DNA of 64,000 nt. Origin: Aggregatilineales bacterium. GTDB taxonomy: Bacteria; Chloroflexota; Anaerolineae; Aggregatilineales; Phototrophicaceae. The notes beneath the pieces were generated by a model. That model saw only the letters and a program-made list of their open reading frames with translations. It made no database searches and was not told the origin of the DNA. Position 1 is the stretch's first letter; each line of letters opens with the position of its first letter. This document shows, piece by piece, positions 35,645 through 50,796 of this stretch. Location: contig JBBSQD010000006.1 in NCBI GenBank assembly GCA_038258185.1, positions 279-64,278 on the forward strand, in the 5' to 3' direction. The position numbers were made by a program, and so were the translations under genes.

Positions 35645-36543
35645 AAACTCACCCTGATTGCCGTAATGTCTTCACTGACAGGTGGGATAAAATGCAGACC
35701 CACACGCCGCTGCCCCTGCATGCGCGACAGGTACACCGGTTGAATGTAATCCAGATGCGTCAGCAGCGCAACCACCTGGGGCGCGTAATTATCAAGGCCA
35801 GAGGGTAAATTCTGCGGCATACAGTAACCGCTCACACGCACATAATGCCACAGGTCAGACAGGGTACTTTCGGAAAGCACCGTCAGCATTTCGCCCTGAT
35901 GATCAAACAGACTAATGCGTTCCTCAAAATCATCCAGCGTGGCCGTAAAAACAGTATTTTCGTCCAGCGTTTCGAAGCGTGTCTGGCGCTGCACCACCGC
36001 GATCATCTCATCGCGGAAGCGGGTAAATGTCGGCACCTGCGGCAGACCATTCAGCCAGGTTTGCTGAGTCTTAAAATCGGTTTTGAGCGCGAACTGATTT
36101 TCCGGCTCATACAGATGGATGTAGATATTAATCGGCAGATCGTGCAGGTAACGCTCCATAACGGGACGCACGACCGTTTCCCAGTCTAACCCGCCCAGGC
36201 CTGCCCCCAACATGGGAAATGAAACTGAAGTCAGACCTTTATCCGCATACGTCGCGACGAATTTTTCCAGCCCCTGTTCCAGATATTCCAGCCGTGAGGG
36301 GTCACGCCAATCGGCTTTGGTGGGGAAGTTCAAAATCCATTTATGGGGCGTTTTATACAGCCACAACTGACCAACTTTGAACTGCTGCTGATCGCATAAA
36401 ATCCGATACTGGTCATTCATCTGCGGATAAAACTGGCGAAACTGGTAAGCGAGTCCTTTGCCCATCGTGCCGACCGTATTCACGGTGTTGACCAGCACTT
36501 TGGCCGGGCTATAGAAAATGTCGCTGACAACATAGGTAATCAT
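35641..36543 (-). CDS. DarG-like macrodomain protein (N-terminal macrodomain + ~150-aa C-terminal domain)
   Basis: SDIFYSPAKVLVNTVNTVGTMGKGLAYQFRQFYP, ILNFPTKADWRDPSRLEYLEQGL and SFPMLGAGLGGLDWETV form the DarG/TARG1-type macrodomain pattern. The start is placed at MITYVV (36543, AGGA 6 nt upstream). An alternative GTG lies at 36612. Confidence 0.75.
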   Translation of the reverse strand: MITYVVSDIFYSPAKVLVNTVNTVGTMGKGLAYQFRQFYPQMNDQYRILCDQQQFKVGQLWLYKTPHKWILNFPTKADWRDPSRLEYLEQGLEKFVATYADKGLTSVSFPMLGAGLGGLDWETVVRPVMERYLHDLPINIYIHLYEPENQFALKTDFKTQQTWLNGLPQVPTFTRFRDEMIAVVQRQTRFETLDENTVFTATLDDFEERISLFDHQGEMLTVLSESTLSDLWHYVRVSGYCMPQNLPSGLDNYAPQVVALLTHLDYIQPVYLSRMQGQRRVGLHFIPPVSEDITAIRVSL

Positions 36544-36682
36544 GAAATATCCTGTCTGGGAGGCTTCCGCCTCAGTGTAACATGCTTTTGGCTGGCTTAC
36601 GGTTAAGTCCACAGGGTGTTTCGACCAATATAGCCATCATCTGCATTGTTTTTCCGCTTCAGGCCATATACAATCAACATAT

Positions 36683-37108
36683 ATGACAATCAAAACAAAT
36701 GATGTTGACTTAACCAAAATCAGCGCCTTAGCCGTCGAAGATGATGCCGGTGGTATGGCGATTATCGGCGTGATGATGCGCTACTTAGGCATAAAAGCCT
36801 ATATTAACACGACCGGTGAAGGTGTGGTGGAAATGGCGCACGCTATGAAACCGCTACCCAAGGTCGTCTTTCTGGATATTGCACTGCCGCGCACCAATGG
36901 CTATGACATCCTCAAATCGATTCGCGCTGATGAAAAGCTGAAAGATGTGCTGGTCATCGCGGTCACGGCACAGGATGCCGATAACGAAATCCCCAAATGC
37001 AAGGAGGCCGGTTTTGATGGCTTCATCGGCAAGCCTATCAGCCGCGGACGCTTTCCCCGGCAGGTGCGACGCATCCTCAGCGGCGAATCCGTCTGGGAAA
37101 CCTACTAA
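36683..37108 (+). CDS. Stand-alone CheY-like receiver domain protein
   Basis: LAVEDD, VFLDIALPRTNG, AVTA and GFIGKP. The protein is 141 aa with no output domain. Confidence 0.85.
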   Translation: MTIKTNDVDLTKISALAVEDDAGGMAIIGVMMRYLGIKAYINTTGEGVVEMAHAMKPLPKVVFLDIALPRTNGYDILKSIRADEKLKDVLVIAVTAQDADNEIPKCKEAGFDGFIGKPISRGRFPRQVRRILSGESVWETY

Positions 37109-37206
37109 TCGCAACCGATTTTCTGCGTTTGAACAGCCTTTTTACAACCTCAGCCCAAAATAACCGTAAACTGAATAAGAACGCCATTTATCTGAGGCTT
37201 TGATTG

Positions 37207-38619
37207 ATGCGCTATCCCCTGTTGTATTACGTCATTGCGATTCCCATAGTGGCTTTGATGAGCTTAATCTTTTTAAGCCCGCTAGTGATCTCACTGGCAG
37301 GAACATCATCCAGCACCAGCAATAACTGGAAACTTTACCGGGTGCAAGCAGATGCCAATACGCCGGGAACGGTTGCTGTGCTGCTGACGGATAGATGTTG
37401 CGACGAAAATACGAATACAGGAATAATTTACGAAACCCGGGATTACGGGGTTAGCTGGGAACTCCTAAGCGATAAAACCAGTCAATGGAGTTTTCAGGAA
37501 GAAACCAGTCGCGAATTTTATTTTGCTAATGGTGACTTACGCTACCAAAATCAATGGATCTGGACGTATCCTCGGTACATGTTTCGGACGTTTTTCTGGG
37601 GTTGGGGGAATGTTGACAACAGCTCGTTTCTAGACATTGAGGCAGGCGTTCACACGGCGGACACCACTTACGTTGCTTTGGGCAGGGACGGCTTGCTGAT
37701 CGGCCCCTATCCGACTGATAGTGATGCACGCTCATGGACACTGGTCAGCGAGCCTTTTCCACAATTAAATCCGCGACCGCTGACGATACGTAACCCATTG
37801 CATCTGCTTCTGATTACTGCACTCGGCCTGCTGATTCCGCCATTGCCGTTTATCCATGCGTGGCTGCTGGCGCAGGTGTGGCGTTACGCTGTGCCGGGTC
37901 ACGATATGGAGGAAGCCTTGCGTCCAGCATGGCGTGTCTCACTGCAACTGACGATCATCGCGGCAGTGGCGGTGATCCTATGGCTCACCAACATCAATAC
38001 GCGCTTTTACGCCATTGTCGGCGGGATGGCAATCGTGGTTGTCGTCGTTGGCCTCATCAATGCCTGGGAGATCGCCCAAAAGGCCAATATGGGGCGCGCT
38101 TTCACCATCAAGTTATTAGCAGGCACAGCCCTGGTATCGCTGATCGTCCCGGCAGGTGTGGCAACAACGCAGTTTGGCTTCGGCTGGACAGTTATCATCA
38201 CCCTGATTACAGGCTTTATGAGCTATCGCCACACCCTGGAAGATGAGATACAAATCAATTCTCATCAGGGAGAGATTGATCACTTATCGTTGGAAGTGCT
38301 CGGTGGAATGTTGTGCACAATGGCCTTGCTGAGCGGCGTGGTTCCGCTACAGCTTGGCGTGGTCGTTGTCGTGACAGCCTACATTGCCGGACGTTTAACC
38401 TGGATAGCCATTCACACTCATGATGACACAACTAAAAAAACCAAAAATGAATCTTCGTTTTCGTATCTTGCGCTTTTATTGAATGGGAACTGGTGGGGAA
38501 TGGGATTTTTCATGACGATTGGATGGTTTTTCGCATCCGGGGCTGTGTCGACCCTGATCTTTTTCACGCAGCTTGCCGCCTGGGGGTATTTCTATCAGGT
38601 CGGCATGGGGAATTTGTGA
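37207..38619 (+). CDS. Membrane protein with an N-terminal BNR/sialidase-like extracytoplasmic region and a C-terminal multi-TM region
   Basis: BNR-like ETRDYGVSWELL near the N-terminus. More than 8 hydrophobic helices lie in the C-terminal half. I recognised no family. Confidence 0.6.
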   Translation: MRYPLLYYVIAIPIVALMSLIFLSPLVISLAGTSSSTSNNWKLYRVQADANTPGTVAVLLTDRCCDENTNTGIIYETRDYGVSWELLSDKTSQWSFQEETSREFYFANGDLRYQNQWIWTYPRYMFRTFFWGWGNVDNSSFLDIEAGVHTADTTYVALGRDGLLIGPYPTDSDARSWTLVSEPFPQLNPRPLTIRNPLHLLLITALGLLIPPLPFIHAWLLAQVWRYAVPGHDMEEALRPAWRVSLQLTIIAAVAVILWLTNINTRFYAIVGGMAIVVVVVGLINAWEIAQKANMGRAFTIKLLAGTALVSLIVPAGVATTQFGFGWTVIITLITGFMSYRHTLEDEIQINSHQGEIDHLSLEVLGGMLCTMALLSGVVPLQLGVVVVVTAYIAGRLTWIAIHTHDDTTKKTKNESSFSYLALLLNGNWWGMGFFMTIGWFFASGAVSTLIFFTQLAAWGYFYQVGMGNL

Positions 38620-38714
38620 TATCGCAGATTTATCCCAATTATATCCCAAAATTTAAAGTGGTCTTTATAAATCAGGCAGAGTTGGTGCTGTTCAAGGAAA
38701 TAAATAAAACAGAA

Positions 38715-38742
38715 GTACGGACATGGCATGCCATGTCCGTAC
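38715..38742. terminator. 28-nt perfect palindrome, bidirectional terminator candidate
   Basis: gtacggacatggca|tgccatgtccgtac lies between convergent genes. It is flanked by A-rich sequence (upstream) and T-containing sequence (downstream). Confidence 0.65.
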
Positions 38743-38792
38743 ATATTAATGCTTTTAACTGATTTATCTGCTTAACTAGCGTGATGCTGATT

Positions 38793-39620
38793 CTACTCCA
38801 GCACTTTCACCGGGTTAGATAGTTCGCCCAATCCATCAATTGTGATTTTGACGACATCGCCGTCTTTCAGATAGCGCTTGGGCTTCATACCTTCACCCAC
38901 GCCATCCGGTGTACCGGTCAGGATGACATCACCGGGTTCCAGTGTGAACATCTGTGAGCAGTAGGAAATCAGATGACGGACGTTGAAGATCATGTCTTTA
39001 GTGTGGCCGTCCTGTACAACTTCGTCATTGACCATCGTCTTGATGTTCAGATTCTGCGGGTCTTCAATCTCATCACGAGTGACCAGATACGGCCCCATCG
39101 GGCAGAAGGTATCCAGGCTTTTGCCGCGTGTCCACTGGCTGTCGATGCGGATCTGCAGGTCACGCGCGGAAACATCATTGGCGATGGTATAGCCATAAAC
39201 ATGATTGAGCGCATCTTCTTCGGTGACGTTGCGGGCGCGTTTGCCAATGACGACCCCCAGCTCACCTTCCCAATCGACTTCATTGGTTATGGCCTTGCTC
39301 CAGCTGATATCCTCACCGGGGGCAATGACCGCGCTGGGGAACTTGGCGAAAATGATCGGCGCGGTGGGGACATCACTGCCGGTTTCTTTGGCATGATCGG
39401 CATAGTTGCGGCCAATGGCAATAATCTTACCCGGGCGCAGCGGAGCCAGAATACGAATATCATCGAGTTTATAGGACATGCTGACGCGGCTGGGGGTAAT
39501 ATTGCGCCGCACCACCTCGTTCATGGTCATCGTGTCGGAGCCCGACAGCATATAAATTTCATCACCATCAATCTCACCCAGTAAGGTGCGGCTATTATGT
39601 GCAAAACGTACCAGTTTCAT
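38793..39620 (-). CDS. Fumarylacetoacetate hydrolase (FAH) family protein
   Basis: KIIAIGRNYADHAKE, WEGELGVVIGKRA and GDVILTGTPDGVG. Confidence 0.9.
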   Translation of the reverse strand: MKLVRFAHNSRTLLGEIDGDEIYMLSGSDTMTMNEVVRRNITPSRVSMSYKLDDIRILAPLRPGKIIAIGRNYADHAKETGSDVPTAPIIFAKFPSAVIAPGEDISWSKAITNEVDWEGELGVVIGKRARNVTEEDALNHVYGYTIANDVSARDLQIRIDSQWTRGKSLDTFCPMGPYLVTRDEIEDPQNLNIKTMVNDEVVQDGHTKDMIFNVRHLISYCSQMFTLEPGDVILTGTPDGVGEGMKPKRYLKDGDVVKITIDGLGELSNPVKVLE

Positions 39621-39851
39621 TTATTGACCACCTTTGAATATTGCAGAAATATCGTAAAACTCTATTTTACCGTATCTTGCCACGATACTGGCGACCAATT
39701 GTCCCCACATGGTCTGTACCACCCCGGTGATTTGTCTTTATACTCAATCCAGTCGATACTGGTAGATAATTTCAAACGCCAATCGCAACCCCAATCAATT
39801 GCCAGGGGATGATCTGACGCTGGTATAGTGCGAAGAAAGCTGGGTGTGAGC

Positions 39852-42568: not shown

Positions 42569-42620
42569 AGGATTACCCTTTAATGGCTAAATTCTGAACA
42601 GATGCTGCACAAGCTTTCTT

Positions 42621-42738
42621 ACCCCTCACCCCTTAATCCCCTCTCCCACAAGAGGCGAGGGGACTTTCAAGTCCCGTTATGAACCGACTAATTCTCCCTT
42701 TCTCCCCTGGTGGGAGAAAGGGTTGGGGATAGAGGGGC
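42621..42738. repeat. Two adjacent GC-rich hairpin repeat units (PSPxGEG-type short interspersed repeat family)
   Basis: Unit 1 is acccctcaccccttaatcccctctcccacaagaggcgagggga. Unit 2 is ctccctttctcccctggtgggagaaagggttggggatagagggg, with an 11-bp stem ccctttctccc/gggagaaaggg. Related copies lie at 55349-55386 and 55568-55626. Confidence 0.75.
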
Positions 42739-42855
42739 AAAATAAACAACTCGCCATCATGCTAACAGCTTAATGTCCCCGGCTTACACTTGCCTAAACA
42801 GCTCTGGCTCACAAAACTTGCTGAATAACGCTGTTCGCGCTTACGCTGGAGATGG

Positions 42856-44122: not shown

Positions 44123-44767
44123 ATGATGATGCGAAAATTTTTGACCCTGGCCGTTCTTTTGACTTTGCTTGTAACCGCCTGTGCCCAGCAATCAACTCCT
44201 GCGACTGAGTCAATCGTTGAAGTCACATTGCCGCCAACCGAAATCCCGCAGGATACCGATCCCGCAACGCCTACGGCTGAAATCGCGGCTGCGCAGGAAG
44301 CGGAGCAACCCGTCGCCAATATAGATATTCCGGCGATCCAGAACGTATCGTTGGTAAATGCCGCCACGGGCGAAACTTTTACACTGGCGGATTTCGAGGG
44401 CAAGACCGTGCTGGTAGAGCCGATGGCGACCTGGTGCACCAACTGTCGCGCACAGTTAGGCAATGTCATCCGCGCGAAAAGTCAGTTGGGCAGCGATTTT
44501 GTCTTTGTCGGTTTGAGCGTGGGCGAAAATATCACGGATAGCGATCTGGCCACTTATGCCACCCGTCAGGGTTTTGATCTGGTGTTCGCGGTGGCGACTT
44601 CCGAAATGCTCACTGAGCTGACCAGCAACTTTGGTCGTGCCTCCCTGACGCCGCCCTCTACACCGCATTTTATCATCCGGCCTGATGGCAGCATGACCGA
44701 CTTGTTTACAGGCTCTAAAAATTCAGATACGCTCGTGTCACTGCTCAATGAAGCTGCTGGAGCTTAA
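44123..44767 (+). CDS. TlpA-like thioredoxin-fold lipoprotein (thiol:disulfide oxidoreductase)
   Basis: Lipoprotein signal MMMRKFLTLAVLLTLLVTAC. The CxxC active site is ATWCTNCRAQ. It lies upstream of ccdA. Confidence 0.8.
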   Translation: MMMRKFLTLAVLLTLLVTACAQQSTPATESIVEVTLPPTEIPQDTDPATPTAEIAAAQEAEQPVANIDIPAIQNVSLVNAATGETFTLADFEGKTVLVEPMATWCTNCRAQLGNVIRAKSQLGSDFVFVGLSVGENITDSDLATYATRQGFDLVFAVATSEMLTELTSNFGRASLTPPSTPHFIIRPDGSMTDLFTGSKNSDTLVSLLNEAAGA

Positions 44768-44769
44768 GT

Positions 44770-45564
44770 GTGTCCGAGTTATTGACTGCATTCACGCTGG
44801 GGAACGCCGCCATTCTGACGAATGTCTGTATGCTGCCCCTGTATCCCGGCCTGATCGCGTTTCTGGCCGGGACAGCCGATAGTCAACGCTCCCGGCTGAC
44901 CACCGGCTTGCTGGGTGCGGTGGTGCTGGCGGGTATCCTCAGCATGATGATCCTGATCGGGTTGGTGCTGCATGTGACTCAGGCGTTTTTCGGGAGCATT
45001 TTTAATATCCTGCTGCCGGTGATTTACATCATCGTGATCGTGCTGGGTGTGCTGCTGCTGATTGGCCGCAGTCCGTTTGCAAAATTGCAGACCGCCCAGG
45101 CACCGATGCTGCGCAATCCGTATATCACGGCTTACGTCTATGGCCTGCTGTTCGGGCCGATGACACTGCCCTGCACCGGGCCGATTATCGTCACGGCGTT
45201 TGCGACCGGAGCCGGAGACGCCGGGATGCTGCTGGATGGCATCGTCTATTTTCTGGCGTTTGGGCTGGGATTTGGCTGGCCGTTAGTGCTGCTCCCGCTA
45301 TTGGCGTTGCCCGTTCAGCGGCGTTTCGTCAGTTGGCTGACTCACAACCACCTGCTGCTTAATCGGGTGTCTGGCATTCTGCTGATCAGTGTAGGCATCT
45401 TCGGCTTTATCAGCGAACTGCTGCCGCTGTGGATTGACGGTTTCGAGCCGACCGGGGCGCTGATCGCACTCTACTGGCTGATCGTCATCCTGATCGCAGG
45501 CGCGGTCATCTACGTGACGCGCCGTGAAACTCACACCCCCGAACAAAGCATCAACGCCGCATAA
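44770..45564 (+). CDS. ccdA: Cytochrome c biogenesis / thiol:disulfide electron-transfer protein CcdA (DsbD transmembrane family)
   Basis: Two conserved membrane Cys motifs are present (NVCMLPLYPG and LPCTGPI), with six hydrophobic helices. Confidence 0.85.
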   Translation: MSELLTAFTLGNAAILTNVCMLPLYPGLIAFLAGTADSQRSRLTTGLLGAVVLAGILSMMILIGLVLHVTQAFFGSIFNILLPVIYIIVIVLGVLLLIGRSPFAKLQTAQAPMLRNPYITAYVYGLLFGPMTLPCTGPIIVTAFATGAGDAGMLLDGIVYFLAFGLGFGWPLVLLPLLALPVQRRFVSWLTHNHLLLNRVSGILLISVGIFGFISELLPLWIDGFEPTGALIALYWLIVILIAGAVIYVTRRETHTPEQSINAA

Positions 45565-45570
45565 CCCTCG

Positions 45571-45621
45571 ACAGCAGCTTTTCTCGATTGATGTGTGATG
45601 TCGGGGAAGTTGCTGTTTTAT
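45571..45621 (+). terminator. Candidate terminator after ccdA
   Basis: 10-bp stem acagcagctt/aagttgctgt with one G-U pair and a long loop, followed by tttatt. Confidence 0.4.
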
Positions 45622-45822
45622 TGGGCGAACAAATTGAGTTTGTCATAATTATTTTCAGTCCAGCAAAACTTATAGACAACCCTCCAAAATTCTGCTATGC
45701 TGTGAAGCATGATTTACTTCTCGTATCATAAAACACTCGCATTTATCCGTCTGTCGTCCACTTCAGGCGCTCCGGGGGATAGGTGCGCCTGCTAACTGGT
45801 ACGTAATGTAATTTGTAATTTT

Positions 45823-45857
45823 ACGGCTGTAGGCGTGACTGCTTGCAGCCGTTTTGA
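45823..45857 (+). terminator. Terminator-like hairpin inside the 5' leader of the ABC-F gene (attenuator candidate)
   Basis: 12-bp stem 45823-45834/45841-45852 with two G-U pairs and the loop gtgact, followed by ttttgattc. It lies about 80 nt upstream of the ABC-F start codon. Confidence 0.55.
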
Positions 45858-45930
45858 TTCTGGCATTGGGTGAATCTGGCATGGGCAATCACGCTTCCAG
45901 CCCATCATGGGATATTTTACGGAGGAACTC

Positions 45931-47583
45931 ATGCACATTATCAATATCAACACCATCACCGTCAACCACGCCGGTCGGCAAATCTTCAGCGAACTGACAT
46001 GGGCCATTGGCGATCATGACCGAGTCGGTCTGGTCGGCCCCAACGGTGTGGGCAAATCCACCCTGCTCAAAGCCATCATGGGCGAAGTCCAGCCGGATAC
46101 CGGCAGCATCAGCCGGATACGCGGCGTGACCGTGGGCTATCTGCCGCAGCAGGTGGAACTCACACCTGGGCGGCAACTCTTGCAGGAAGCCCTCACGCCA
46201 CCCCCCGAACTGGCCGCTGTCGAAGCCGAACTGACGCGCATCGAAGCGCAGTTAGGTGATCCTGATGTCTATAACAGTGAGAGCAAACTCACCCGCGTAC
46301 TGCGTCATCAGGAGAAGATTCTGCTGGAATATGAGCGTCTGGGTGGGCCGCGCCACGAAAGTCTGGTCAAGGAACTGCTGGCGCATCTGGGTTTTACAGC
46401 CGACGACTACGACTTACCCACTGATACCCTCAGTGGCGGTCAGAAAAAGCTGGTTATGCTGGCGCGTCTGGCGGCTGAGACTCCGTCCGTGCTGTTGCTG
46501 GATGAACCAGATAATCATCTCGATCTGGAAGCCAAGCATCATCTGGAAAATTTCATCAGGAGTTATGGCGGCTCCGTGATCATCGTGTCGCATGATCGTT
46601 ATCTGCTGGATGCCGTCGCGCTGGAAATTGCCGAAATGGAAGATGGCAAGCTCAACCTGTATCCCGGCAATTACACCGCGTATACCACTGAGCGTGAACT
46701 GCGCCGCATGCGCCAGCAGCAGATGTTTATCGCGCAGCAAAAACGCATCCAGCAGATTGAGGAAGCCATCAAAGAGTGGGAACTCAAAGCGCGTAATGAC
46801 CTCAATGAACGCCATGCACGGCAGGCGGCCAGTCGGCGCAAAATGCTGGCGCGGATGGAAGAAAGCGGCGATATGGTCGAGCGCGTCTATGAACGCCGCC
46901 AGATGGAACTTCAGCTTGAAGGCTGGCGCGGCAGCACCAAAGCGCTGGAAATCATTGATCTGTGCATGGGGTTTGGGGATGATCTGCTGTTCATGGATTT
47001 GAATCTGCTGGTGCGGCATGGTGAGCGCATCGGCCTGATTGGCCCCAACGGTGCCGGAAAATCGGTTTTGTTCCGCCTGATTCTGGGCCAGCATGAACCG
47101 TTAGATGGACTGATTAAAGTTGGCCCCAGCACACGCATCGGTTACTATTCACAGGAACATGAAACACTCAGCGATTGGTTGACGCGCACACCGCTGGATC
47201 GCATCCGTGATATCAAGCCCATGAGCGAGGGCGAGGCAGTCAGCTTTCTGCTCAAGTTCCAGTTGAAATACGACCAGTTACGCATGCCAGTCGGTACCAT
47301 GAGCGGTGGTGAACGCAGCCGCCTGCAACTGGCCGCGCTGATGCTGGAACAGCCCAATCTGCTGCTGCTAGACGAGCCAACCAATAATCTGGACATTCCC
47401 TCAACCGAAGCGCTGGACGCCGCGCTGGAGGACTTTGAAGGGGCTATCCTGACCATTTCTCATGATCGTTACTTTCTCGACCGCACGATTGACCGGGTGG
47501 TCGAACTGGACGAGGGTACACTGACGACCTATACTGGCGGCTACACGGATTATCTGACGGCTACCGGGCGCGCTTTTGCCTGA
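45931..47583 (+). CDS. ABC-F family ATPase (two ABC domains, no TM domain)
   Basis: Two Walker A motifs (GPNGVGKST, GPNGAGKS) and two signature motifs (LSGGQKK, MSGGERS). A long Arg/Lys/Gln-rich interdomain linker is present. GGAGG lies 5 nt upstream of the ATG at 45931. Confidence 0.9.
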   Translation: MHIININTITVNHAGRQIFSELTWAIGDHDRVGLVGPNGVGKSTLLKAIMGEVQPDTGSISRIRGVTVGYLPQQVELTPGRQLLQEALTPPPELAAVEAELTRIEAQLGDPDVYNSESKLTRVLRHQEKILLEYERLGGPRHESLVKELLAHLGFTADDYDLPTDTLSGGQKKLVMLARLAAETPSVLLLDEPDNHLDLEAKHHLENFIRSYGGSVIIVSHDRYLLDAVALEIAEMEDGKLNLYPGNYTAYTTERELRRMRQQQMFIAQQKRIQQIEEAIKEWELKARNDLNERHARQAASRRKMLARMEESGDMVERVYERRQMELQLEGWRGSTKALEIIDLCMGFGDDLLFMDLNLLVRHGERIGLIGPNGAGKSVLFRLILGQHEPLDGLIKVGPSTRIGYYSQEHETLSDWLTRTPLDRIRDIKPMSEGEAVSFLLKFQLKYDQLRMPVGTMSGGERSRLQLAALMLEQPNLLLLDEPTNNLDIPSTEALDAALEDFEGAILTISHDRYFLDRTIDRVVELDEGTLTTYTGGYTDYLTATGRAFA

Positions 47584-47646
47584 AAACAAACGCAGCCATC
47601 AGCCCGAAAATCCGTAAGCCACGCTTAATGCTGAAGGATAAGATTG

Positions 47647-48459
47647 ATGCCTGCGATTTATACAATGGGTGATATTCACGGTCATTATCAGCAGATGATG
47701 ACTCTGTTACGGGTTAATCACCTGATCGATGCTGAAGATCACTGGTGCGGCGGCACAGATGCCCTCTGGTTCGCGGGCGATTTTTTCGACCGTGGGCCAG
47801 ATGGCGCTCCTGTCGTGGAGGCCATCATGCGCCTCCAGCGTGAGGCGCAGGCCGCTGGCGGCGAGATCAAAGCCGTGCTGGGCAATCACGATGTGTTGCT
47901 GTTATCGGTGGTGCGCTTTGGTAAATACAATCAGGCCATCATCGACGCGGTAACCAGCGGCAAAATGCCCCGGCTCAGTCAGTTGGATTGGTTTACGGCA
48001 GGTTGGATTAATAACGGCGGTGTACCGAATGATCTGGGGCGCTTAACGTCTGTCCACATCGACTGGTTAAGCGCGTTACCGGCGATGTTTTTGCAGCACG
48101 GTTACCTCTTTTTCCATGCTGACTCGTCACTGTATCTGCATTACGGCACCCGTGTAGACGATGTCAATGCGGCATTTAAGGCTATTATTGAGAGCGATGA
48201 TCGCGAGGCGTGGGATTTGCTGCTCGATCAGTTCAGCGAGCATAAAGCCTTTATGAGCAATATGTCCAAAGTGCGGCTGTTTCAAACGGTCTTCGGCGGC
48301 AAGCAGATTATTCATGGGCATACACCCATCATGAACGCCACCAATCAACCGCCCAAAACCGTGACCGAACCCTACTTGTATGCCAGCGAGCGCTGCATCA
48401 ATATCGATCACGGCCTTTATCGCGGTGGGCCGGGGTTCATCTATCAGTTAAACGTGTAA
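47647..48459 (+). CDS. Metallophosphoesterase (PPP/ApaH-like Ser/Thr phosphatase family)
   Basis: GDIHGH, GDFFDRGPDG, GNHD and GHTP. Confidence 0.85.
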   Translation: MPAIYTMGDIHGHYQQMMTLLRVNHLIDAEDHWCGGTDALWFAGDFFDRGPDGAPVVEAIMRLQREAQAAGGEIKAVLGNHDVLLLSVVRFGKYNQAIIDAVTSGKMPRLSQLDWFTAGWINNGGVPNDLGRLTSVHIDWLSALPAMFLQHGYLFFHADSSLYLHYGTRVDDVNAAFKAIIESDDREAWDLLLDQFSEHKAFMSNMSKVRLFQTVFGGKQIIHGHTPIMNATNQPPKTVTEPYLYASERCINIDHGLYRGGPGFIYQLNV

Positions 48460-48485: not shown

Positions 48486-49583
48486 CTACTGCCATGACGC
48501 GGATTCGAGCAGGCCGCCGTTAATCCACAGGGCATTCAGGCTGCGGTTGATGGGTAGGGCGCTGGTGGGGCCCAGGTGACGATCATAGATTTCACCATAG
48601 TTGCCCAATTCCCTGATGACTGGCACGATAAAATTCGGTGCCAACCCCAGACGAATACTTGTCTCAACAGCCACATCCAACAGGCGTGCCCGGGCAATGC
48701 CGACCCTGTTCACGTAAGCCTCTTCATCTTCGCCTTCAATACGGGCAAAATCCATCACGTTGGAGCTGTTAATTCCCAACTCCTCCGCGTAGATCAGGCC
48801 ATTCATAGTCCAGTCGACAATGGCACTCCACTGCTTGTCGCCATAACGATAAACCGGGCCTTTACCAATGCGTGTGAATGGCACTTCCCACACCACAAAA
48901 TCATCAGGCACATCAGTGGTTTGTCGCCGGATTTCCAGCAGGGAACGCTCGGAGGTCTGCACATTGCAGCGTCCCGCCAGGAATGCTTCCTGCACAGCCT
49001 GTGCATCTCCAAAGGTCAACAGCTCAAAGCGCAGATTACGCACCGCCATCTCATTGCTGAGATTAGACGCGGCCAGCGTATCAGCAATCGCACAGATGGT
49101 TTCGCCAGAGAGGTCATCCCAGGTTTCAATTTCACTGTCGCGCCGTACCATGATGGATTGCCCATCAAAAAATGTCACTGGCCCAAAATCCAACCCGGCA
49201 TTACTATCCTGAGTCAGATTCAAAGCCAGATCATGCAGTAGGGCGACATCCAATTCCCCGCTTAACAGGTCAGACGGTGGTGTTTTCAGCGGTAAAAGGC
49301 GCAGATCCAGCGCTGTCGGGTCACCAAAAATTGCGGTGGCGATGGCCGTGCACAATTCCACATCAATACCAGTGATATCACCGGTGTTCGGATTAAGAAA
49401 ACCGAAGCCGAATACATCTTCGTTGACACCGCAGGTCAGTTGACCACGTGCCAGCACGGTCGCCAGCGTCGGGCCGATTTCCAGCTCTGCCGTGGGTGCA
49501 TCCTGCGCCAGCAGTAAAGTCGTTCCACTGAGCAGGATAAGCATAAACACAAGGGGAAGCAGTTTCAGTTTAATGGATGTCAT
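48486..49583 (-). CDS. Periplasmic amino-acid-type ABC substrate-binding protein (family 3, AapJ-like), orphan
   Basis: Signal peptide MTSIKLKLLPLVFMLILLSG. The size and the pattern GFDVELC-like (GIDVELCTAIA) fit the family. No permease or ATPase gene is adjacent. Confidence 0.7.
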   Translation of the reverse strand: MTSIKLKLLPLVFMLILLSGTTLLLAQDAPTAELEIGPTLATVLARGQLTCGVNEDVFGFGFLNPNTGDITGIDVELCTAIATAIFGDPTALDLRLLPLKTPPSDLLSGELDVALLHDLALNLTQDSNAGLDFGPVTFFDGQSIMVRRDSEIETWDDLSGETICAIADTLAASNLSNEMAVRNLRFELLTFGDAQAVQEAFLAGRCNVQTSERSLLEIRRQTTDVPDDFVVWEVPFTRIGKGPVYRYGDKQWSAIVDWTMNGLIYAEELGINSSNVMDFARIEGEDEEAYVNRVGIARARLLDVAVETSIRLGLAPNFIVPVIRELGNYGEIYDRHLGPTSALPINRSLNALWINGGLLESASWQ

Positions 49584-49591
49584 AGACTCTT

Positions 49592-49870
49592 TTATTCGCT
49601 ATTGGGGCGAAATGCCGCTACTTTCTGTTCGATAATTGCGCGAATCTCACCGGGCTCGGCGTGACGACCCAGCGCCTTCTTTGAAAAGACCAGTTCGCCA
49701 TTGACCATCACCTCGAAGACGCCGCCCTTGCTGGGAATTAACCGCCAGGAGGGGACATAGGCTTCGATCTCACGCTCGTTCAAAATTTCGTCCGTCAGAC
49801 TGACGGCACGGGGTGTGTGATGTCAAGCCGCGCAGTATTCAATACTGATATCTAACGCACCGATTTGCAT
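49592..49870 (-). CDS. SelW/Rdx-family thioredoxin-fold protein with an in-frame TGA at the CxxU position (putative selenoprotein)
   Basis: Manual translation from ATG 49870 (GGAGG 10 nt upstream) gives MQIGALDISIEYCAA-TGA-HHTPRAVSLTDEILNEREIEAYVPSWRLIPSKGGVFEVMVNGELVFSKKALGRHAEPGEI... The TGA lies at 49825-49823. The downstream part equals track ORF 49592..49783. Confidence 0.65.
49792..49806 (-). promoter_or_regulatory. SECIS-like hairpin downstream of the in-frame TGA
   Basis: On the mRNA, CCGUCA-GUC-UGACGG starts 17 nt 3' of the UGA. Its apical loop contains GU, and the CAGUCUG core resembles the CAGGUCUG apex of the E. coli fdhF SECIS as I recall it. Confidence 0.45.
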
Positions 49871-50040
49871 AAATCAAACTCCTCCATGATACACTGAAAA
49901 GAATTATTGTAATAACACCAGCATATAACAAAATGCTGCATGTATCTCCAACTATATCAAATTCGTCAAAAACCTCCAACCATTAAGGTCTGGCATCTTG
50001 CCTTTTGGCCCCGCAGCAGACACAATGAAATTATGAGGTT

Positions 50041-50796
50041 ATGCACTGGAAGATTATGAGCGCTATTGACGAACTTATCCATGAGTACAACCAGCTACGT
50101 GCCAGTGGCATGGCGGTCAAAGATGTCTTAAACACGCTGCGCACGAAAATAGAAACCCTGGATGAAAAGAGTAAGCAAGCGCTGGCGCGTCATCTTCACG
50201 GGCTGGAAGCTCAGAAAAAAGCGACAAACACCACGCGCCGCGTAGTGGTCACGCCAGATAAAATGACGCAAACCCCAACCCAGGAACTGACCTGGGTGAA
50301 TTGTCCCCATTGTGGAAAAAGCAATCAAAAGCATGAATTACTGTGTTACTCATGCGGGCGCCTGCTGGAAAGATCGCACAGTGAGTTTGAAACCCAGGCA
50401 TTAGCAGAAACCAACGACCTCACCTTCAGTAACGACTACTTTGGCCACGACTCGTTTCTGGTGTTAAAAGTACGCGGCTCTGAAGAAGCTTTTGAAGCGC
50501 AACCCCAGAAAACCGAGCAGGAACTGATTATTGGCCGTAAAGTTGAGGGAAGTGCGGTCTTCCCCGATATCGATCTGTCTGACGTGGACGGCGAAATTTA
50601 TGGCGTCTCACGCCTGCATATGTCGGTACGTTACCAGCCCAAATATAATACGCTGAGCGTGTTTGATCTGGGCAGTGCCAATGGATCATACATCAATGGT
50701 CAGCGTTTACATCCGCACGAAGTGAGGGTGCTGCGCCACAATGATGAGATTCGCCTGGGCAAGTTGGTGATGAAAGTGGCCTACCGCCACAGTTAA
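50041..50796 (+). CDS. Zinc-ribbon + FHA domain protein
   Basis: The zinc ribbon is CPHCGKSNQKHELLCYSCG. The C-terminal FHA has IIGRK, VSRLHMSV, DLGSANGSYINGQRL and NDEIRLG. Confidence 0.85.
   Translation: MHWKIMSAIDELIHEYNQLRASGMAVKDVLNTLRTKIETLDEKSKQALARHLHGLEAQKKATNTTRRVVVTPDKMTQTPTQELTWVNCPHCGKSNQKHELLCYSCGRLLERSHSEFETQALAETNDLTFSNDYFGHDSFLVLKVRGSEEAFEAQPQKTEQELIIGRKVEGSAVFPDIDLSDVDGEIYGVSRLHMSVRYQPKYNTLSVFDLGSANGSYINGQRLHPHEVRVLRHNDEIRLGKLVMKVAYRHS

Follow-up and report, generated by a model that had tools for sequence, protein, structure and literature searches.

A SelW-like Rdx gene from Chloroflexota whose in-frame TGA, followed by a SECIS-like hairpin, is very probably a selenocysteine codon

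Gene model, protein family, and gene neighbourhood

We analysed a 64-kb stretch of DNA (hereafter, the window) that carries a SelW-like ORF on the minus strand at 49870..49592. The ORF reads MQIGALDISIEYCAA-TGA-HHTPRAV...PNSE and gives a frame of 92 codons when the TGA is read through. Translation of this frame yielded MQIGALDISIEYCAA*HHTPRAVSLTDEIL...PNSE*, in which the part after the TGA (49825-49823) runs HHTPRAVSLTDEILNEREIEAY...PNSE and is closed by a TAA (49594-49592). An earlier note, made from the letters of the window, had proposed a frame that starts at the ATG at 49870 and is interrupted by this TGA, and the translation confirmed it. The same note had stated that the ORF track starts the gene at the TTG at 49783 and thereby loses the redox motif. 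Both the ORF list and the structural model agree with this statement: the mechanical list contains only a 63-aa piece from that TTG, and in the predicted structure a start there deletes β1, the CxxU motif, and α1. The coordinates of all features are summarized in Table 1.

In regard to translation initiation, the note correctly placed a Shine-Dalgarno sequence upstream of the ATG, but its reading as GGAGG with a 10-nt spacer is better replaced by GGAGGAG (49885-49879), with a spacer of 8 nt to the ATG. In the closest relative (L001), AAGGAG stands at an identical distance. Contigs of three runs were available for comparison, namely X1 (soil metagenome), X2 ('organism A'), and X3 (freshwater sediment). 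The strain in run X1 carries two adjacent substitutions at 49884/49885, which change GGAGGAG to TAAGGAG on the coding strand and leave the AAGGAG core intact, as in L001.

Table 1. Features of the SelW-like locus in the window, with the basis of each assignment.
Feature	Position	Strand	Basis
Complete gene of the predicted SelW-like (Rdx family) selenoprotein, 92 codons including Sec16, stop TAA 49594-49592	49592..49870	-	Translation; Pfam Rdx; TIGR02174; AlphaFold model compared with 3dex and 2fa8
Start codon ATG	49870-49868	-	Read from the sequence
Shine-Dalgarno sequence GGAGGAG, 8 nt before the ATG	49879..49885	-	Direct reading; spacing in L001
Cys13 codon TGC, first residue of CxxU	49832..49834	-	Translation; EYC motif kept in homologues
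In-frame TGA, very probably the selenocysteine codon (U16) at the second position of CxxU	49823..49825	-	Alignment with Cys in homologues and in Rdx proteins of the PDB; conservation; three runs
Internal TTG, false start of mechanical or automatic ORF calling	49781..49783	-	ORF list; model; database entries P0032 and P0036 start at the same position
SECIS-like hairpin, core: CCGUCA (49806-49801), GUC (49800-49798), UGACGG (49797-49792); loop G at 49800	49792..49806	-	Fold; pairing; invariance of the loop G
SECIS-like hairpin, extended stem: CGU/ACG around the core, G49807 bulged, begins 12 nt past the UGA	49789..49810	-	Minimum-free-energy structure
Family-3 solute-binding protein gene with signal peptide, 8 nt after the stop of the SelW-like gene	48486..49583	-	Pfam SBP_bac_3

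For the comparison with family profiles, position 16 of the read-through product was set to Cys instead of selenocysteine (Sec). The product matched Pfam Rdx (PF10262) over residues 8-81 with an E value of 2.6e-16 and 60 bits (cut-off, 22.6), and it scored 47.9 bits against TIGR02174 (CXXU_selWTH; cut-off, 34.2). These two matches bear out the proposed membership in the Rdx/SelW family. The best-scoring NCBIfam model was the equivalog NF041051 (SelTWH_Campy), with 77.4 bits over residues 8-80; since this is under the curated cut-off of 88, the gene lies outside that equivalog. Sequence matches in the PDB were 3dex (2e-08) and 2fa8 (4.6e-07), and the CxxC of both proteins aligns to C13 and position 16.

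The AlphaFold model (pLDDT 74.7) has a thioredoxin-like fold, which consists of β1 (residues 7-13), the CxxU turn, α1 (19-30), three further strands, and a C-terminal helix. Foldseek matched this model to 3dex, 2fa8, and 2p0g at TM scores of 0.73-0.79 and rmsd values of 1.4-1.6 Å, and listed mouse SelW (2npb) and then thioredoxins at lower ranks. The C13-A-A-U16 motif sits between β1 and α1, both in the model and in the alignment with homologues, 3dex, and 2fa8.

A homologue of the solute-binding protein gene lies directly downstream of the SelW-like gene in 40 of the 81 loci with enough flanking sequence, and in the window the two genes are probably co-transcribed. The solute-binding protein gene of the window (48486-49583, minus strand) has no permease or ATPase genes after it and is followed by a convergent metallophosphoesterase gene (47644-48459, plus strand). 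Genes for ABC permeases (BPD_transp_1) come after the homologue in L002 and L088, joined in L002 by an ABC ATPase gene. On the other side, a gene for an FHA-domain protein (50041-50796, plus strand) is divergent from the SelW-like gene, an arrangement that recurs in 27 of 78 related loci; the FHA homologue of L088 also has a weak zinc-ribbon match. A mechanical search of the window for other UGA-interrupted ORFs gave 106 candidates, none with a redox motif or a plausible gene context.

Several differences from the window were seen elsewhere in the contigs of the runs. At about 38700-39000, the contigs of X1 and X2 both break with several different loose ends, and the depth in X1 doubles to 21.6 at 38672-39338; a repeat may lie here, or a segment that is mobile or variable. 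The X2 strain has 57 other letters in place of 172 nt at 42591-42764 and gave no matches of ≥97% over two multi-kb stretches (about 36300-39700 and 44250-47400). These differences in X2 point to strain-level variation around response-regulator and ABC-F genes.

The codon at the second redox position

A protein database search retrieved 486 homologues, which form two populations. The full-length homologues (90-100 aa) read EYCAPCGY or EYCAVCKF and have a Cys exactly opposite the TGA, whereas the many fragments (63-80 aa) begin just past the motif and are nearer to the query (70-87% identity). The DNA behind two of the fragment entries contains the same in-frame TGA, and the upstream ATG and the N-terminus are conserved there. 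The UGA is thus aligned with the catalytic Cys of homologues: it falls on the second Cys of the CxxC motif in the full-length proteins and in the solved structures, which is the position that the earlier note had assigned to it.

We then consider the genomes. When one genome was scanned for each prokaryotic species, 80 loci were obtained, nearly all from Chloroflexota MAGs (Anaerolineae, Aggregatilineales, Phototrophicaceae, Caldilineaceae, and Thermoflexales), with the best relative at 78% protein identity. A plasmid search gave no near match, and for the neighbouring protein no identical sequence turned up. The aligned codon is TGA in 77 of these loci, including the closest relatives (L001-L003), and TGC in the other three (L036, L052, and L057). 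The only sense codons found at this position in relatives are those of Cys (TGC and TGT), and TGG never occurs. The Cys-type gene of L088 is 63% identical and stands in the same neighbourhood as the gene in the window (Creatininase, divergent FHA, Rdx, and SBP_bac_3), which indicates that it is an orthologue. Two bins labelled Cellvibrionaceae (L077) and Pleurocapsa (L041) contain a gene of the Chloroflexota type, probably by binning contamination and less likely by horizontal transfer.

The TGA might be a true stop codon, in which case the locus would hold either a decayed pseudogene or a 63-aa Rdx fragment that starts at the TTG at 49783. Mechanical ORF calling reads the locus in this way, and dozens of database entries are annotated likewise. 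It also accords with this interpretation that SelA, SelB, and SelD of E. coli, used as tblastn queries at E ≤ 1e-3, had no match either in the window or in 82 related loci (1.34 Mb). However, the ATG, the 15 codons before the TGA (MQ...EYCA), and the Shine-Dalgarno sequence are kept as coding in about 80 genomes from several orders; a dead 5' end would not be kept. Furthermore, the 63-aa piece lacks β1, the redox motif, and α1, the internal start is not conserved, the truncated database calls begin at differing positions, and the hairpin that follows the TGA covaries (see below). We consider a true stop highly improbable.

An error of sequencing or assembly, with TGA in place of TGC or TGT, has in its favour only the prior consideration that TGA and TGC differ by a single base. 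The contigs of X1, X2, and X3, which come from three independent runs and leave out rare variants, span 49823-49825 without a difference, though they differ from the window at other nearby positions, and the TGA is also found in L001-L003. In a fourth run, a related strain reads ...YCAV-TGA-G. The TGA described in the earlier note was thereby corroborated, and an error at this codon is barely conceivable.

TGA terminates 10 of the 47 long ORFs in the window, which indicates that the standard genetic code is used. An alternative code, in which TGA would specify Trp or Gly, was ruled out on the same ground.

The hairpin downstream of the TGA

The hairpin described in the earlier note, CCGUCA-GUC-UGACGG with GU in the loop, is present in the sequence. 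Its distance from the TGA, given as 17 nt, needs a small refinement: 16 nt (49822-49807) intervene, and the core stem starts from the 17th nucleotide. In the minimum-free-energy fold of the region, the core hairpin occupies the centre. Outside the core, the stem is less well conserved, and relatives differ in the form of this extension. The fold of the single sequence gave a z value of -1.44, and 20 of 200 shuffled sequences folded as well, which is not significant alone; in a 136-nt context the z value was +0.35 with a different minimum-free-energy fold. Because folding of one sequence is not significant, the case for a SECIS rests on the comparison with other genomes.

For this comparison we used an ungapped alignment (A2) of 71 distinct sequences that extends from TGA-3 to TGA+56. 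The six core pairs are paired in 94.1% of the cells, and this value falls to 17.6-52.8% when the 3' partners are slid by 1-3 columns. Compensatory double changes occur in four of the six core pairs and amount to 19 cells; shuffling of the columns gave 2.0 ± 1.3, and none of 500 shuffles reached the observed value. RNAalifold independently found the lower four pairs. In L063-L066, the compensation is doubly synonymous, an Ala codon changed from GCC to GCG being paired with a Thr codon changed from ACG to ACC. Coordinated amino-acid swaps were also seen, from Val/Thr to Ile/Met in L012, L048, L054, and L071 and to Thr/Val in L024 and L073; such swaps are predicted by RNA pairing and not by protein conservation. 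The first loop nucleotide is G in 71 of 71 distinct sequences, and the loops are mostly GUU, GUC, or GGU. Judged by this comparison of sequences, the hairpin past the TGA behaves like an RNA structure under selection. The description of the hairpin as SECIS-like in the earlier note is borne out by the covariation and by the invariant G that opens the small apical loop.

The Cys-type genes of L036, L052, L086, and L088 have unrelated sequence and no hairpin at the place of the SECIS. The structure is kept among the Sec forms, in which it covaries, and lost in Cys forms, with a partial hairpin in one of the latter: L057 (10001-10267), which carries TGC, keeps a short GCCGUC-AC-GACGGC hairpin at the SECIS position. 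This hairpin may be a remnant of a recent conversion from Sec to Cys, or it may be due to chance. We also tried hairpin energy alone as a discriminator between Sec and Cys forms. This failed, as the Cys form L086 reaches -10.7 kcal/mol through another stem; the two forms are told apart by the position and register of the hairpin and by the loop G.

The core pairs are broken in six sequences (L058, L059, L061, L069, L078, and L079), which form a subgroup of Caldilineaceae and Anaerolineales. These six can form a GGGC-CGUGA-GCCY stem-loop about 4 nt upstream (TGA+15 to +30), which looks like a variant SECIS.

We searched the whole window against Rfam at the gathering thresholds and obtained no match, and a search of 49500-50000 at E ≤ 10 gave chance matches only (e.g., mir-4436). 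To our knowledge, Rfam does not contain a general model of the bacterial SECIS. Bacterial SECIS elements have been described as stem-loops that follow the UGA and whose small apical loop includes a guanosine (PMC1088965). The hairpin in the window has these properties, as it lies 3' of the UGA and combines a 6-bp stem with the loop GUC.

Selenocysteine decoding and comparison with known systems

ARAGORN detected no tRNA in the window. Likewise, no tRNA-Sec was found in the window, and among the 82 related loci only L054 contains one. The tRNA-Sec of L054 (5338-5430, minus strand) is bona fide, with 73.5 bits against Rfam RF01852 (gathering score, 47). It lies 5 kb from the TGA-containing SelW-like gene of the same locus (L054:251-520) and is flanked by genes unrelated to selenium (ThuA, DUF4276, AAA ATPase, and DnaX). 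When the contigs of X1 and X2 were compared with the L054 tRNA, each run yielded one tRNA-Sec-like contig, and the two contigs share an identical set of differences from it. Their depths are 9.26 (X1) and 8.48 (X2), compared with 8.4-12.3 (X1) and 5.9-9.6 (X2) for the organism of the window. This match in depth fits an organism that carries selC itself and is only suggestive, the assemblies being metagenome-like. The L054 tRNA-Sec and the contigs of X1 and X2 provide indirect support for the existence of the Sec machinery in the lineage.

The UGA could also be read through without Sec, either by near-cognate insertion of Trp or Cys or by a local recoding, with the hairpin acting only as a stimulator of read-through. 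Two full-length gene calls (P0001 and P0012) have Trp at the homologous position, and the Sec machinery of this genome is a prediction. However, the DNA of P0012 (L085:41-319, on a short contig) reads TGA, which indicates that the gene caller applied a table with TGA as Trp; the Trp is thus an artefact of that table in P0012 and presumably also in P0001. In the window TGA is an ordinary stop. In addition, the position belongs to the catalytic CxxC/CxxU site, at which only Cys or Sec works in this family, and the relatives never show TGG there. The geometry of the hairpin and its loop G are typical of a SECIS that binds SelB (PMC1088965), and L054 has a tRNA-Sec in linkage with the gene. Read-through with another amino acid is therefore very unlikely.

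The reading of the TGA at codon 16 as a Sec codon of a SelW-like Rdx gene with a SECIS hairpin, which the earlier note had proposed, is supported by the alignment with Cys, the conservation of TGA in 77 of 80 loci, the covariation of the hairpin, and the base call. We regard it as very probably correct. In this case, the single minus-strand gene (49870..49592) would encode a 92-residue cytoplasmic SelW-like selenoprotein of the Anaerolineae group of Chloroflexota. UGA at codon 16 would not act as a stop, and the hairpin within the ORF would work as a bacterial SECIS. By analogy with the E. coli model, the apical loop would bind the SelB-GTP-Sec-tRNA(Sec) complex and bring it to the ribosome that reaches the UGA, where Sec would be inserted. 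As in other members of the family, the Cys13-x-x-Sec16 centre would cycle between the selenolate/thiol and selenylsulfide forms, and the product would presumably be a thiol-dependent oxidoreductase.

The main value of the finding lies in the correction of annotation, as truncation is routine in this group of Chloroflexota. The public gene calls of the closest relatives are 63-80 aa long or contain Trp at the Sec position, just as expected from the earlier prediction that automatic annotation would truncate the gene. In public Chloroflexota MAGs, annotation as a fragment or with Trp applies to the gene and most of its relatives, whose redox centre is thereby hidden from downstream analyses. A correct call would mark the organism as a selenium user and predict that selA, selB, selC, and selD, and perhaps further selenoproteins, are encoded elsewhere in the genome. 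The finding also extends a well-known selenoprotein family to a large and environmentally abundant lineage and offers a clean example of an RNA structure that constrains the peptide encoded by it; the understanding of Sec decoding and of SelW function is left unchanged.

A more far-reaching interpretation would combine these observations. It holds that the SelW clade is Chloroflexota-wide and almost obligately uses Sec (77/80), that about half of the loci couple it in an operon to the gene of an exported family-3 solute-binding protein (with only 8 nt between the two genes in the window), that its role is the redox handling of an imported amino-acid-type substrate (e.g., one containing a disulfide or selenium), and that the A-V-S-L-T-D/E segment is dictated by RNA structure and not by protein function. 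We put forward this combination as a speculation that is unlikely to hold as a whole.

The fdhF SECIS of E. coli is the paradigm of SelB-dependent UGA decoding. Its upper stem-loop, which is the functional part, begins about 11-12 nt past the UGA, compared with 12 nt for the extended stem in the window. Both hairpins lie directly 3' of the UGA inside the ORF and have a bulged base in the stem and a loop with G followed by U; the apical loop G is essential in fdhF. In contrast, the loop is GGUC in fdhF and a 3-nt GUC or GUU here, the two stems are unrelated in sequence, and the host genes differ. The SelB site of the hairpin described here is putative.

The fold of the window protein is common to the solved Cys-type Rdx proteins 3dex (SAV_2001), 2fa8 (Atu0228), and 2p0g (the SelW-related protein of Vibrio cholerae). 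These proteins carry Cys where the window protein is predicted to carry Sec, and the identity is only 24-32%.

The mechanism and the family are established, and bacterial SelW-like selenoproteins with CxxU have been known since 2005. In the Sargasso Sea data, no selenoprotein family was more abundant than the SelW-like proteins, of which 48 genes carry the CXXU motif, and an interaction of these proteins with glutathione has been reported (PMC1088965). A survey from 2006 catalogued SelW-like proteins in bacterial genomes, with Sec forms that have few Cys homologues, and listed only three selenoproteins for the whole phylum Chloroflexi in Table 2 (PMC1794560). No Chloroflexi are among the SelW-like-containing organisms named in the available portions of the two surveys (PMC1088965, PMC1794560). 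Our literature search, which is weak evidence in this respect, found no description of an Anaerolineae-type SelW clade.

The bacterial SelW-like selenoproteins described in these surveys resemble the window protein in their length of about 90 aa, the thioredoxin-like fold, the Cys-x-x-Sec motif just past β1, and the stem-loop within the ORF after the UGA with a G in the apical loop; Sec forms dominate and Cys-type forms exist in both (PMC1088965, PMC1794560). The clade of the window differs from the described selenoproteins in its occurrence in Chloroflexota (Anaerolineae, Aggregatilineales, Caldilineales, and Thermoflexales), in its own highly uniform SECIS, which encodes A-V-S-L-T-D/E, and in the family-3 solute-binding protein gene that often stands next to it. 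The additions made here to the known family are the lineage, its uniform SECIS, a use of Sec that is nearly universal, and the finding that public annotation truncates the gene systematically.
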